DNA from: a virus | Taxonomy: Duplodnaviria; Heunggongvirae; Uroviricota; Caudoviricetes | Virus record (IMG/VR): IMGVR_UViG_3300018471_000187 | Strand: one strand, 5' to 3' | Length of the DNA stretch: 4,550 nucleotides | Shown here: piece by piece, positions 1-4,550 of the stretch | How positions within the stretch are numbered: position 1 is the stretch's first letter | Layout of the letters: each line of letters begins with the position of its first letter | Program-made: the position numbers and the translations under genes | Notes under the pieces: generated by a model | The model's database searches: none | What the model saw: only the letters and a program-made list of their open reading frames with translations | What the model was told of the DNA's origin: nothing

Positions 1-30
1 CTGGAGTTCAGACGTGTGCTCTTCCGATCT
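1..30. other. Illumina TruSeq-type sequencing adapter (reverse complement of AGATCGGAAGAGCACACGTCTGAACTCCAG); non-biological
   Basis: Positions 1-30 read ctggagttcagacgtgtgctcttccgatct, the exact reverse complement of the first 30 nt of the standard TruSeq adapter. The same adapter is present in forward orientation at 4517-4550. Confidence 0.95.
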
Positions 31-77
31 TGGCAAAAACTGATCCCGAGTCAGGCTGATTCTTAATGTTCAACTGT

Positions 78-109
78 CGCCGGTTGTGACTGGTATTCTG
101 CAACCGGCG
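78..109. repeat. Inverted repeat / stem-loop: 9-bp GC-rich stem (cgccggttg / caaccggcg) with a 14-nt loop, upstream of xis; function unknown
   Basis: Positions 78-86 are the perfect reverse complement of 101-109. No U-tract follows on either strand, so it is not a canonical intrinsic terminator. Confidence 0.5.
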
Positions 110-138
110 CTCGTCTGATGTAAGAGATAAAGAAATCG

Positions 139-390
139 ATGAGCGAAGTAATCATGATTGTCTCTCCCGGCAAATGGGTATCCGAAGAGCAGTTAATTGC
201 GCTGAAAGGAATAAAAAAAGGTACGTTAAAAAAGGCCCGGGAAAAATCGTTTATGGAAGGAAGGGAATATAAGCATGTCGCTCATGACGGTATGCCATGG
301 GATAACAGTCCATGCTTTTACAACCTGGAAGAAATTGATCGCTGGATTGAGCGCCAGGCATCAGCGAGACCAAGACGTCATCTTACTTGA
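139..390 (+). CDS. xis: Phage excisionase-like protein (lambda Xis-like small DNA-binding protein), 83 aa
   Basis: Small basic ORF immediately upstream of the integrase on the same strand. It contains a GREY motif in a context resembling lambda Xis (DGREYLFHESA in lambda versus EGREYKHVAHDG here). The start is ambiguous between ATG 139 and ATG 154, with no strong Shine-Dalgarno for either. Confidence 0.6.
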   Translation: MSEVIMIVSPGKWVSEEQLIALKGIKKGTLKKAREKSFMEGREYKHVAHDGMPWDNSPCFYNLEEIDRWIERQASARPRRHLT

Positions 391-424
391 CTAAAAGCCA
401 CACTAACTAATGAGAGAAGTTGAA

Positions 425-1705
425 ATGAAATATCCGACAGGCGTGGAAAACCATGGAGGGAAATTACGTATCTGGTTTGTTTATAAAGGCGTAAGAGTCA
501 GGGAAAATCTGGGGGTTCCTGACACAGCAAAAAACAGGCGCGTTGCAGGTGAACTACGCTCCTCTGTTTGTTACGCAATAAAAACTGGTGTTTTCGACTA
601 TGCAAAACAGTTTCCCTCCTCACGCAATCTGGAAAAATTTGGTGAGGCCCGACAAGATTTAACCATAAAAGAACTGGCTGAAAAATTTCTGGCACTGAAA
701 GAAACTGAAGTCGCCAAAACATCACTCAACACATACCGTGCCGTCATCAAAAATATCCTGAGCATAATCGGTGAAAAAAATCTTGCCTCATCGATTAATA
801 AAGAAAAATTACTGGAGGTTCGTAAAGAGCTACTGACTGGATACCAGATCCCCAAAAGTAACTATATTGTTACACAACCAGGGAGATCGGCTGTAACTGT
901 AAATAATTACATGACAAATCTTAACGCCGTGTTCCAGTTTGGTGTTGATAACGGTTACCTGGCAGATAACCCGTTTAAGGGGATCTCGCCATTAAAGGAA
1001 TCAAGAACCATTCCGGATCCTCTTTCGCGGGAGGAATTCATCCGTCTTATCGATGCGTGCAGAAATCAGCAAGCCAAAAATTTATGGTGTGTTTCTGTTT
1101 ATACTGGAGTTCGCCCTGGTGAGCTGTGTGCACTTGGATGGGAGGACATAGATCTGAAAAATGGAACAATGATGATCAGGAGAAATTTAGCAAAAGACCG
1201 TTTCACGGTACCAAAAACACAGGCGGGAACCAATCGGGTCATTCATCTTATTAAGCCAGCAATCGACGCTCTCCGGAGTCAGATGACATTAACGAGACTG
1301 AGCAAAGAGCATATCATTGATGTTCACCTCAGAGAGTATGGCAGAACAGAAAAACATAAATGCACCTTTGTTTTTCAACCTGAAGTGTCAGCGAGAGTAA
1401 AAAATTATGGTGACCATTTTACCGTTGACTCAATAAGGCAGATGTGGGACGCAGCGATAAAACGTGCCGGACTCCGCCATCGAAAATCATATCAGTCGAG
1501 ACATACTTATGCCTGCTGGTCGCTGACAGCTGGTGCTAATCCGGCATTTATAGCAAACCAGATGGGCCATGCAGATGCGCAAATGGTATTTCAGGTATAC
1601 GGAAAATGGATGTCTGAAAACAATAATGCACAGGTAGCTTTGTTAAATACACAGTTAAGCGAGTTTGCCCCAACCATGCCCCATAACGAAGCAATGAAAA
1701 ATTAA
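425..1705 (+). CDS. intQ: Tyrosine-type site-specific recombinase (phage integrase, IntQ/IntR-like), apparently full length at 426 aa
   Basis: N-terminus PTGVE...RIWF is typical of Rac/Qin-family integrases. The catalytic-domain motifs are present: VRPGEL (box I Arg), SRHTYACW (box II Arg) and GHADAQMVFQVY (His with the Tyr nucleophile 10 residues later). Start chosen at ATG 425 (MKYPTGVE), which has a purine-rich GAGAGAAG 5 nt upstream; the in-frame ATG at 410 has no SD. The gene symbol is by positional analogy to K-12 intQ, from memory. Confidence 0.85.
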   Translation: MKYPTGVENHGGKLRIWFVYKGVRVRENLGVPDTAKNRRVAGELRSSVCYAIKTGVFDYAKQFPSSRNLEKFGEARQDLTIKELAEKFLALKETEVAKTSLNTYRAVIKNILSIIGEKNLASSINKEKLLEVRKELLTGYQIPKSNYIVTQPGRSAVTVNNYMTNLNAVFQFGVDNGYLADNPFKGISPLKESRTIPDPLSREEFIRLIDACRNQQAKNLWCVSVYTGVRPGELCALGWEDIDLKNGTMMIRRNLAKDRFTVPKTQAGTNRVIHLIKPAIDALRSQMTLTRLSKEHIIDVHLREYGRTEKHKCTFVFQPEVSARVKNYGDHFTVDSIRQMWDAAIKRAGLRHRKSYQSRHTYACWSLTAGANPAFIANQMGHADAQMVFQVYGKWMSENNNAQVALLNTQLSEFAPTMPHNEAMKN

Positions 1706-1892
1706 TTTAATATTTATCAAATAGTTGACACGTATGACTCTTGAAATCCATAAATTCAAGCGCAGTGCCCAGCCATCCCGATACTGCTGCTTTCACCAAA
1801 TCCTTAGTGCTTCTTTCATGTTTTTCTATTGTCATAATGGTTATCTCTAAAAAAGAGGTAAGATGCGTACTACTTACTCGCCGTTATTGGTA
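1706..1892. other. Prophage/host junction region expected to contain the attachment-site core (attL or attR); core not identified
   Basis: 187-bp non-coding gap between the convergent int stop (1703-1705) and rspB stop (1893-1895). Its int-proximal part (about 1706-1760) is AT-rich, as phage att arms often are. It contains a sigma70-like element, TTGACA (1725-1730), 18-nt spacer, CATAAA (1749-1754), reading towards rspB. Confidence 0.4.
1849..1879 (-). terminator. Candidate intrinsic terminator of rspB: imperfect 7-bp stem with one bulge followed by a T6 run on the minus strand
   Basis: Plus-strand gaggtaag (1855-1862) pairs with cttactc (1873-1879) around a 10-nt loop; the A6 run at 1849-1854 becomes the U-tract on the minus strand. 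It lies 14-44 bp downstream of the rspB stop. The stem is AT-rich and weak. Confidence 0.35.
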
Positions 1893-2912
1893 TTATTCAG
1901 AAAAAGTGAGTAAGACTTTGCAGCAATGTTTTTGATCCTGTTCAAATAAACTAATGGCATCAGCAACATGCTGGAAATCAAACGTATGGGTAATTAATTT
2001 TTCTGGTTTAATTAACCCTTTACTTAACCAGTCGATAACAACCGGAAATTTATTTGCATTTAAGCGTGAAGAGAAAATAGAGAGTTCTTTTCCGGTAATT
2101 CCTTGCTGAATCACTTCAGACGGTTCACTGGAGAAGCCCATCAATACAATACGTGCCGCTGGAGAAGCCAGCGTTACGGCCTCTTTCAGGATAGAAGGAT
2201 GACAAGCCGCATCGATAATTAATGTCGGCTTGATGCCTTTTTCAGCGAAAATCTCGCCAAGCGGTGTCTGGCTGTTATTAATCGCCCTGTCTGCCCCGCT
2301 CTCTTTCGCTTTTTCCAGTCGTTCATCAATGCGATCGGCAACAATCACATTTTTAACGTTATAGACGCCTTTTAATACCTGAACGATCGTCAGGCCGATT
2401 GGACCGGCACCATAAACCAGAACGGTATCATTTTCAGTCGGTTGACCATGACCGGTAACGTTAGCCGCAATGGTAAAAGGTTCGATCATCACCGCATATT
2501 GATCGGCCACTGCTTCAGGAATTTTCCACGCATTTTTTGCCGGAACCACGGCATATTCACTGAAACCACCGTCAGCGTGCACACCTAATACAGCAAGTGT
2601 CGTACAAACGTTCGGCTTACCTATAGAGCACGGATAGCAATGCCCACAGCTGACCACCGGATCGACAGCAACACGTTCACCGACTCTGGCGCTTTCCACG
2701 CCGTCACCCACCGCATCAATGACGCCAAAGAATTCATGTCCAATGACGCGCGGATATTTCACAAAAGGATTATGCCCACGATAAATATGGCTATCAGAAC
2801 CACAAATTCCGGCAAGTTTCACTTTTACTCGTACTTCACCCGCTGACGGGGTGGGTATTTCACGTTCGACAATCGCCAGTTGATTCGGTTTTTCAATTAA
2901 TATGCTTTTCAT
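1893..2912 (-). CDS. rspB: Starvation-sensing protein RspB, Zn-dependent alcohol/polyol dehydrogenase family (MDR superfamily), 339 aa
   Basis: The translation carries the catalytic-zinc region GICGSDSH...GHEFFG, the structural-zinc motif CGHCYPCSIGKPNVC and the Rossmann motif VYGAGPIGL. Start set at ATG 2912-2910 (MKSILIEK) with SD AAGGAG 7 nt upstream; the longer track ORF beginning MELVRSKI would start inside rspA and lacks an SD. Length matches E. coli RspB from memory. Confidence 0.9.
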   Translation of the reverse strand: MKSILIEKPNQLAIVEREIPTPSAGEVRVKVKLAGICGSDSHIYRGHNPFVKYPRVIGHEFFGVIDAVGDGVESARVGERVAVDPVVSCGHCYPCSIGKPNVCTTLAVLGVHADGGFSEYAVVPAKNAWKIPEAVADQYAVMIEPFTIAANVTGHGQPTENDTVLVYGAGPIGLTIVQVLKGVYNVKNVIVADRIDERLEKAKESGADRAINNSQTPLGEIFAEKGIKPTLIIDAACHPSILKEAVTLASPAARIVLMGFSSEPSEVIQQGITGKELSIFSSRLNANKFPVVIDWLSKGLIKPEKLITHTFDFQHVADAISLFEQDQKHCCKVLLTFSE

Positions 2913-2919
2913 TATCTTA

Positions 2920-2925
2920 CTCCTT
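2920..2925 (-). promoter_or_regulatory. Shine-Dalgarno of rspB (AAGGAG) overlapping the rspA stop codon; translational coupling within the rspAB operon
   Basis: Minus-strand AAGGAG at 2925-2920; rspA stop TAA at 2926-2924; rspB ATG at 2912-2910. The intergenic gap is 11 nt. Confidence 0.6.
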
Positions 2926-4138
2926 ACCAGTTCCACAGCGTGCCATCTTCCAGACGTGCGACTGGTAGATAAGCAGGTTCATAGGGATATTTCGCCGCCA
3001 GCTTTTCATCGAATTCGATGCCAAGACCCGGTTTGTCTCCCGGATGCATATAGCCGTTATCGAAAGTCCAGTTGTGCGGGAAGACTTCGAGCATTTGTTC
3101 GGAATAACCCATGTATTCCTGGACACCGAAATTGGGGACCCACAGATCAAAGTGCAGCGCTGCAGCCATGCAGACTGGTGACAAATCGGAAGGACCGTGT
3201 GAGCCAGTACGTACCTGATACAGCGAAGCAAAATCGGCAATCCGGCGCATACCGGTAATTCCGCCTGCATGGGTCAGCGTGGTGCGGATATAATCGATGA
3301 GTTGCTCTTCAATCAGTTGTTTGCAGTCCCAGATGCTGTTGAAGACTTCACCCACTGCGATGGGTGTGACGGTATGTTGGCGAATGAGACGGAAGCATTC
3401 CTGGTTTTCTGCAGGCGTCGGGTCTTCCATCCAGAACATGCGATAATCTTCAATGCTTTTACCAAAGCGCGCCGCTTCAATAGGCGTTAAGCGATGGTGC
3501 ATGTCATGCAGCAAATGTTCATTAAAACCAAACTTGTTACGTACCGCGTCAAACAATTTCGGCATGAAATCGAGGTATTTCTCCGTCGACCACAGCTGCT
3601 CTTCCGGCCACTGTCCTTTGGTTGCGGGTTCATAAGCCAGACCTTTACCTTTCGACATGCCGTAGGTGGTTTTCATACCAGGGATTCCGCACTGCACGCG
3701 GATGGCTTTGAATCCCAGCTCCTGATGACGGGCATAATCATCCAGAGCTTCATCAATACTGTGACCGGTGGTATGGCAATAAACCATCACCCCTTCACGA
3801 GACGCGCCGCCGAGTAACTGGTAAAGCGGCATGTTGGCAGCTTTGGCTTTAATATCCCACAGCGCCATATCAACCGCTGAAATGGCCGACATCGTAACCG
3901 GACCGCGACGCCAGTAAGCACCTTTATAGAAAAACTGCCAGATATCTTCGATACGGTGCGCATCGCGACCAATAAGCTGCGGACAAAGGTGATCCTGCAA
4001 ATAAGAGGCCACGGAAAGCTCACGTCCATTGAGGGTGGCATCCCCAAGGCCCGTAATACCGTCCTCAGTGGTGATTTTTAATGTGACGAAATTACGCCCC
4101 GGACAGGTAACAAAAACTTCAGCCTTTACGATCTTCAT
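2924..4138 (-). CDS. rspA: Starvation-sensing protein RspA, enolase-superfamily D-mannonate dehydratase-like protein, 404 aa
   Basis: The translation [40 protein letters not shown]... and the FWMEDPT metal-binding region are characteristic of the ManD/RspA subgroup. Start set at ATG 4138-4136 with SD AAGGAA 6 nt upstream; the extra 11 N-terminal codons of the track ORF have no SD. Length matches E. coli RspA from memory. Confidence 0.9.
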
Positions 4139-4244
4139 GTTCGATTCCTTGCATCGCTTGTCGTGATGCATGAAATCTACGCAACTGAGCTACTACCATA
4201 CAAGTATGAAGATCGAAAAAAGCCGGAGTGATCACAAAAAAAGG

Positions 4245-4273
4245 CGTATATTTGCGCTGTGAATGGTTGACAA
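4245..4273 (-). promoter_or_regulatory. Weak candidate sigma70 promoter for rspAB: -35 TTGTCA, 17-bp spacer, -10 TATACG
   Basis: On the minus strand, TTGTCA is at 4273-4268 and TATACG at 4250-4245, about 100 nt upstream of the rspA ATG. The -10 lacks the conserved final T, so this is a low-confidence pattern match only. Confidence 0.2.
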
Positions 4274-4294
4274 AAGATGAAATAGAATACCTTT

Positions 4295-4306
4295 TGTCAG
4301 CTGACA
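4295..4306. promoter_or_regulatory. Perfect 12-bp palindrome TGTCAGCTGACA in the ynfA-rspA intergenic region; candidate transcription-factor operator
   Basis: Positions 4295-4306 are exactly self-complementary. The pattern T-GT-N6-AC-A fits the generic FadR/GntR-family half-site arrangement. It lies about 160 bp upstream of the rspA start and about 40 bp downstream of the ynfA stop. Confidence 0.3.
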
Positions 4307-4343
4307 CTTCCTCTTATCTTATTGATAAAATGGATTTATGTTC

Positions 4344-4516
4344 CTACGTGCGCCCCCAGCCCGCAACAATGATCAACATGCCGCAAAGCGCAATCAACGC
4401 ACCCGTCCAGTCATAAAGAGTCAGTTTCACGCCATCCACAACGCGCAGCCACATCAACGCCGTGCAGACATAAACGCCACCATAAGCCGCGTAAACACGC
4501 CCACTCGCCGCTGGAT
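4344..4516 (-). CDS. ynfA: UPF0060-family small inner-membrane protein YnfA, C-terminal portion only (5' end truncated by the fragment end and adapter)
   Basis: Translation [56 protein letters not shown], stop TAG at 4346-4344, matches the hydrophobic C-terminus of E. coli YnfA from memory. The first 12 codons of the track ORF ([12 protein letters not shown]) are encoded by adapter sequence and are not part of the gene. Confidence 0.75.
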
Positions 4517-4550
4517 AGATCGGAAGAGCACACGTCTGAACTCCAGTCAC
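4517..4550. other. Illumina TruSeq-type sequencing adapter AGATCGGAAGAGCACACGTCTGAACTCCAGTCAC; non-biological
   Basis: Exact 34-nt match to the standard TruSeq adapter sequence, in inverted orientation relative to positions 1-30. Confidence 0.95.

Follow-up and report, generated by a model that had tools for sequence, protein, structure and literature searches.

The window analyzed here (the whole 4550-nt stretch of DNA) is, with an estimated probability of about 0.98, a metagenome contig in which a stretch of E. coli chromosome is bordered on both sides by untrimmed Illumina TruSeq adapter, and both the small protein and the terminal repeat that it appears to contain are artefacts. Its ends are synthetic adapter, its interior is normal E. 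coli chromosome, and both junctions between the two lie inside genes; none of the observations speaks against this reading. The features on which this reading is built are as follows, in order of position:

1-30, minus strand: Illumina TruSeq indexed-adapter arm, first 30 nt of AGATCGGAAGAGCACACGTCTGAACTCCAGTCAC, pointing outward, 30/30 complementary to 4517-4546
1-66, plus strand: second in-frame adapter fusion, an adapter frame joined to the last 11 residues (WQKLIPSQADS, then a stop) of a prophage exonuclease
31-4516, unstranded: genuine E. coli chromosomal insert with the 3' end of the prophage exonuclease gene, excisionase, integrase, rspB, rspA and the 3' half of ynfA
4344-4516, minus strand: authentic ynfA sequence from the 3' part of the gene, comprising the final two nucleotides of codon 52, codons 53-108 and the stop codon, with no difference from the reference
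4344-4550, minus strand: chimeric open frame of 68 aa, made of 11 adapter codons, a hybrid codon 12 (TAT, Y) and YnfA residues 53-108
4411-4533, minus strand: spurious 40-aa open reading frame (MCSSDL...), its GTG start also within the adapter, out of frame with ynfA
4517-4550, plus strand: Illumina TruSeq read-through adapter, complete 34 nt, exact match, pointing outward, the reference diverging directly after 4516

Adapter sequences at the contig termini

A pattern search of the 4550-nt window located AGATCGGAAGAGCACACGTCTGAACTCCAGTCAC on the plus strand at 4517-4550 as a single occurrence, with 34 of 34 bases matching and 0 mismatches, and none of the 200 dinucleotide-preserving shuffles used as a control produced a match (0/200). 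The left copy (window 1-30) is the reverse complement of the same sequence minus its last 4 nt. The right end of the window thus coincides with adapter base 34 and its left end with base 30, and the 13-nt core AGATCGGAAGAGC occurs in it twice, at 4517-4529 (plus strand) and at 18-30 (minus strand). Both copies are terminal, with the 3' end of the adapter directed outward. The original prediction had the same adapter standing in inverted orientation at 1-30 and 4517-4550, and indeed the repeat finder reports an inverted repeat of 30 nt with 100% complementarity (1-30 against 4517-4546), with the refinement that the left copy comprises 30 nt and not 34. On direct comparison of the two window ends, the exact inverted-repeat run measures 30 nt and halts right at the adapter boundary. 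This 30-nt "terminal inverted repeat" is a product of two outward-pointing adapter copies and is absent from the organism. The 34-mer itself is a widely printed reagent sequence: a literature text search returned it verbatim from 546 papers, among them a study in which it is handed to AdapterRemoval as the adapter for trimming Illumina reads (PMC11056681).

The chromosomal insert and its junctions

Megablast comparison of the window with 5426 complete E. coli genomes, 5407 of which gave a match, yielded a one-piece alignment of query positions 27-4516 to the chromosome of E. coli strain C41 (NZ_CP127252.1) at 99.8% identity, and in 2693 genomes at least 80% of the window is covered at one place. 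RefSeq annotation of the matched region gives the order exonuclease (3' end), excisionase, integrase, rspB, rspA and ynfA, followed by ynfB and speG; the Pfam domains found in the window are DUF1233 (excisionase), Arm-DNA-bind_2 with Phage_integrase, ADH_N/ADH_zinc_N, MR_MLE_N/C and UPF0060.

At the right junction, the window agrees with the reference through 4516 (...CTGGAT), after which the window continues with AGATCGG... and the reference with GCAACGTTAAC... At the left junction, the two agree from position 31 onward (TGGCAAAAAC...), and leftward of it there is no similarity except for a chance ATCT. Each junction falls within a gene that is longer in the references, namely the exonuclease gene (left) and ynfA (right). 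Among the reference matches listed, none extends into the adapter at either end other than by the chance ATCT to the left of 31, and all of them end at 4516. The re-mapping of the trimmed insert, which had been proposed as a check, therefore came out as anticipated, with 99.8% identity to the E. coli chromosome and with ynfA going on past 4516 for the remaining 154 nt of a 327-nt gene that encodes 108 aa. Moreover, no genome among the 5426 carries this exact sequence as contiguous chromosome, and the 34-mer occurs only elsewhere, in three of them.

The start of the megablast alignment at 27 instead of 31 was considered as possible evidence against the adapter boundary and was rejected, as it reflects the chance ATCT match bridged by a one-base gap. 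The last four bases of the adapter copy at 27-30 (ATCT) are also present in the chromosome just before TGGC, a chance microhomology of 4 nt.

As a separate observation, positions 139-1705 (plus strand) contain an apparently intact excisionase gene (DUF1233) together with that of a 426/431-aa tyrosine integrase (Arm-DNA-bind_2 and Phage_integrase). This pair abuts rspB, with an intergenic stretch at 1706-1892, and represents one end of a lambdoid prophage. In K-12, this position is occupied by the Qin prophage with its intQ pseudogene. Coverage of at least 80% of the window in only 2693 of the 5407 matching genomes fits a variable prophage located next to a conserved rspBA-ynfA segment.

Adapter-derived reading frames

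The minus-strand open reading frame 4344-4550 was originally predicted to start inside the adapter at a GTG, and both the list of open reading frames and the translation bear this out: the GTG occupies the last three bases of the window, and the C-terminal end reads ...GWGRT followed by the stop. The accompanying claim that the first 12 residues are adapter translation fused in frame to the YnfA C-terminus is correct as to the frame and as to 11 of these residues. The 34 adapter nucleotides account for 11 full codons and for only the initial base of the twelfth, which is therefore a hybrid and reads TAT (Y) where the genuine gene has CAT for His52.

Compared with E. coli YnfA (a small membrane protein of 108 aa, UPF0060 / SMR-3 family), residues 13-68 of the window frame are the same, being identical to YnfA 53-108 over the entire part present, whereas its first 12 residues are not YnfA and the N-terminal 52 residues of the real protein are missing because the contig ends. 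The UPF0060 profile reflects the same difference, aligning to the window frame over profile positions 50-106 of 107 and to the reference protein over positions 1-106 (Pfam), so that the frame does not represent a full-length YnfA. Because it reaches the contig edge, the frame amounts to a ynfA that lacks its 5' part and is headed by residues encoded in the adapter, and it does not represent a small protein. By direct reading, two of the three frames of the reverse-complement adapter are open, one of them in phase with ynfA and the other opening the frame 4411-4533. The in-frame joining of adapter and ynfA is a coincidence of phase.

At the opposite end, the left junction cuts the 3' end of the exonuclease gene, the CDS of which ends at 1-66 in the reference annotation. 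The fusion at 1-66 is a mirror image of the ynfA fusion at the right end, and it is missing from the list of the original prediction.

The same adapter in IMG/VR contigs and complete E. coli genomes

At least 120 unrelated viral contigs of IMG/VR contain the 34-mer. Nearly all of the listed occurrences (121 of 123) lie within 250 nt of the contig end that they point to, at a median distance of 24 nt, with plus-strand copies at right ends, minus-strand copies at left ends, and a different insert beside each. Where at least 20 nt follow the 34-mer (71 cases), all but one (70/71) show a variable block of 5-10 nt and then ATCTCGTATGCC..., usually with poly-A at the end. The constant block, which reads ATCTCGTATGCCGTCTTCTGCTTG, is the P7 flow-cell sequence, and the variable blocks (ATCACG, CGATGT, TTAGGC, TGACCA, GCCAAT and others) are TruSeq indices. 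Such a succession of 34-mer, index and P7 is what a TruSeq indexed adapter looks like when reads run through short inserts. The adapter-identity check suggested at the outset came out as predicted, the 34-mer being the trimming adapter of the literature and being followed by index, ATCTCGTATGCCGTCTTCTGCTTG and poly-A in these 70 of 71 cases.

Two of the IMG/VR contigs, L096 (5047 nt) and L116 (5109 nt), resemble the window in that adapter stands at both ends and the complementarity does not extend further inward. A third one, L038 (IMGVR_UViG_3300045988_036917; 11,968 nt), has an inverted repeat of 345 nt at 97% (1-345 / 11624-11968), the outer 41 nt of which are adapter plus the start of the index, the repeat going on for approximately 300 nt inside the adapters. 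The L038 repeat is probably a genuine inverted terminal repeat of a linear genome, the physical ends of which were ligated directly to adapters.

Within the set of 5426 complete E. coli genomes, the 34-mer was matched in just 3 and was absent from 5423. In NZ_AP046542.1 (~2224712) and NZ_AP040990.1 (~4842174), the adapter is embedded internally, in one of them between cheY and cheB and in the other within bglG, which it truncates and which is annotated there as "partial in the middle of a contig; missing N-terminus"; in both of them the adapter is followed by index, P7 and a long poly-A. NZ_AP040927.1 (~902451) has an 88% adapter match elsewhere in the chromosome, and no feature is annotated beneath it. 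The copies in NZ_AP046542.1 and NZ_AP040990.1, the two of these three records that were inspected, are themselves embedded artefacts.

Origin of the contig and alternative explanations

We infer adapter read-through as the source of both termini. Library fragments shorter than the read length would have allowed read 1 to cross the end of the insert into AGATCGGAAGAGCACACGTCTGAACTCCAGTCAC; one such fragment, read on the plus strand, would have ended at window position 4516, and another one, read on the minus strand, at position 31. The leading A/T pair of the TruSeq adapter derives from A-tailing. Adapter trimming was presumably absent or incomplete, and the assembler may then have taken adapter bases into the contig. 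Extension would have halted at the adapter, as adapter k-mers are common to all read-through reads and would form an unresolvable hub in the assembly graph. A stop-free frame of the reverse-complement adapter, in phase with ynfA and with a GTG on the last three bases, generates the apparent 68-aa protein, and the two outward-pointing adapter copies generate the apparent 30-nt terminal inverted repeat; the organism itself has neither of them.

A related possibility, which we consider very improbable, is that the window corresponds to a single physical molecule of the library, its 4486-bp insert flanked by ligated adapters and the whole sequenced end to end (e.g., by a long-read method). Adapters at both ends in outward orientation are just what a ligated fragment would be expected to display. 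Nevertheless, a finished TruSeq library molecule carries unlike arms at its two ends outside of a shared 13-nt stem, its design giving ...ACACGACGCTCTTCCGATCT on one side and AGATCGGAAGAGCACACGTC... on the other. In the window, the same P7/index-side arm is present for 30 nt at both ends, which fits two independent read-1 read-throughs on opposite strands and implies that at least two different fragments contributed, so that the contig is not one physical molecule. In addition, 4.5 kb far exceeds the usual TruSeq insert size.

Far less credible still is an interpretation of the termini as genuine ends of a mobile element, such as a transposon or a linear element carrying int-xis-rspBA-ynfA', with the 68-aa frame as a truncated or fused form of YnfA that really exists. 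In its favor, one could cite the flawless 30-nt inverted repeat right at the termini, a tyrosine integrase accompanied by an excisionase inside the window, and a clean GTG-initiated open reading frame; however, the repeat is the synthetic adapter letter for letter, and every reference genome lacks it at this locus, all of them being collinear across both junctions. The integrase belongs to a prophage that in the references reaches to the left of the window, and the same 34-mer ends the many unrelated contigs described above, being followed there by index, P7 and poly-A. The genuine inverted terminal repeat of L038 is also different, extending ~300 nt inward of the adapters, in contrast to the window repeat, which ends at the adapter boundary. 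A repeat that recurs in genomic DNA together with such an element was not seen among the reference matches listed, the 34-mer being absent from 5423 of the 5426 genomes, and the putative element boundaries cut genes (exonuclease and ynfA) on both sides. Adapter identity and the adapter-free reference loci effectively refute terminal inverted repeats of a transposon or linear element.

The last and weakest alternative, chance similarity of genuine bacterial sequence to an adapter, can draw on nothing but the four bases (ATCT) that positions 27-30 share with the chromosome and is refuted by the shuffle control (34/34 and 30/30 exact matches against 0 expected from shuffles) and by the scan of E. 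coli genomes, 5423 of 5426 of which lack the string.

Relation to known contamination and practical meaning

The adapter at its termini places the window within a known type of artefact, which is without biological significance and the value of which is one of data hygiene. With respect to Illumina adapter contamination of assemblies (the class targeted by UniVec/VecScreen and NCBI FCS-adaptor), the window is the same in having outward-pointing adapter at its termini that is absent from the genome; it adds to this class the presence of adapter at both ends, a false terminal inverted repeat and the in-frame fusions at 4344-4550 and 1-66. According to PMC13182109, contamination of bacterial assemblies by Illumina adapters is well documented; the same paper describes adapters and barcodes of Oxford Nanopore libraries in GenBank records, at terminal segments lying outside of a widely shared genuine backbone. 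The Nanopore case shares with the window the presence of synthetic library oligonucleotides at record termini and differs from it in platform and oligonucleotides as well as in cause, which would be short-read read-through in the window and is untrimmed long-read ends in the Nanopore records. A parallel at the protein level is provided by a vector-derived peptide that recurs in Plasmodium vivax database sequences (PMC4464627): both are translations of non-biological sequence that appear in a public protein database, the Plasmodium peptide of 47 aa originating from a cloning vector with a His6 tag, and the 11-12 aa in the window from a sequencing adapter.

For practical purposes, bases 1-30 and 4517-4550 are to be trimmed and 4344-4516 labelled as a 5'-partial ynfA. 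Neither the end of a mobile element nor the completeness of a linear genome is to be deduced from the 30-nt terminal repeat. Other contigs can be checked in the same manner, by looking for AGATCGGAAGAGC directed outward at one of their ends. It is possible, although we would place the odds somewhat below even, that adapter-only termini recur in public metagenome and viral catalogues often enough to seed false calls of terminal inverted repeats ("complete linear genome") along with a family of adapter-derived N- or C-terminal peptides in protein collections. This suggestion is based on the at least 120 IMG/VR contigs with the 34-mer, on the adapter-only inverted ends of L096 and L116, and on the three RefSeq E. 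coli chromosomes with adapter (internal in the two inspected). If true, it would make the adapter artefact matter at the scale of databases, beyond one contig.

Entry of the chimeric protein into public collections

The junction CTCGCCGCTGGATAGATCGGAAGAGCACAC gave no exact match in viral or metagenome contig collections, looking up the chimeric protein by gene position likewise gave no hit, and a literature search returned no match for the adapter-derived peptide VQTCALPI and nothing specific that links adapters to false inverted terminal repeats or to CheckV. The M-initial form of the chimeric protein is absent from a collection of 15 billion proteins by exact-sequence look-up. The same look-up retrieved its V-initial form, with JGI/IMG as the source and one 4550-nt contig as the origin, which identifies the window with the whole public contig; in that collection, the protein is grouped with E. 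coli YnfA in a 90% identity cluster. The original prediction that an uncorrected contig would give rise to a false full-length small protein is thus realized in part: a chimeric protein did enter a public collection, but its initial V suggests, in view of how gene callers handle contig edges, that it was called as an edge-partial gene and not as a full-length one. This V-initial entry in the JGI/IMG-derived collection is to be treated as contaminated.
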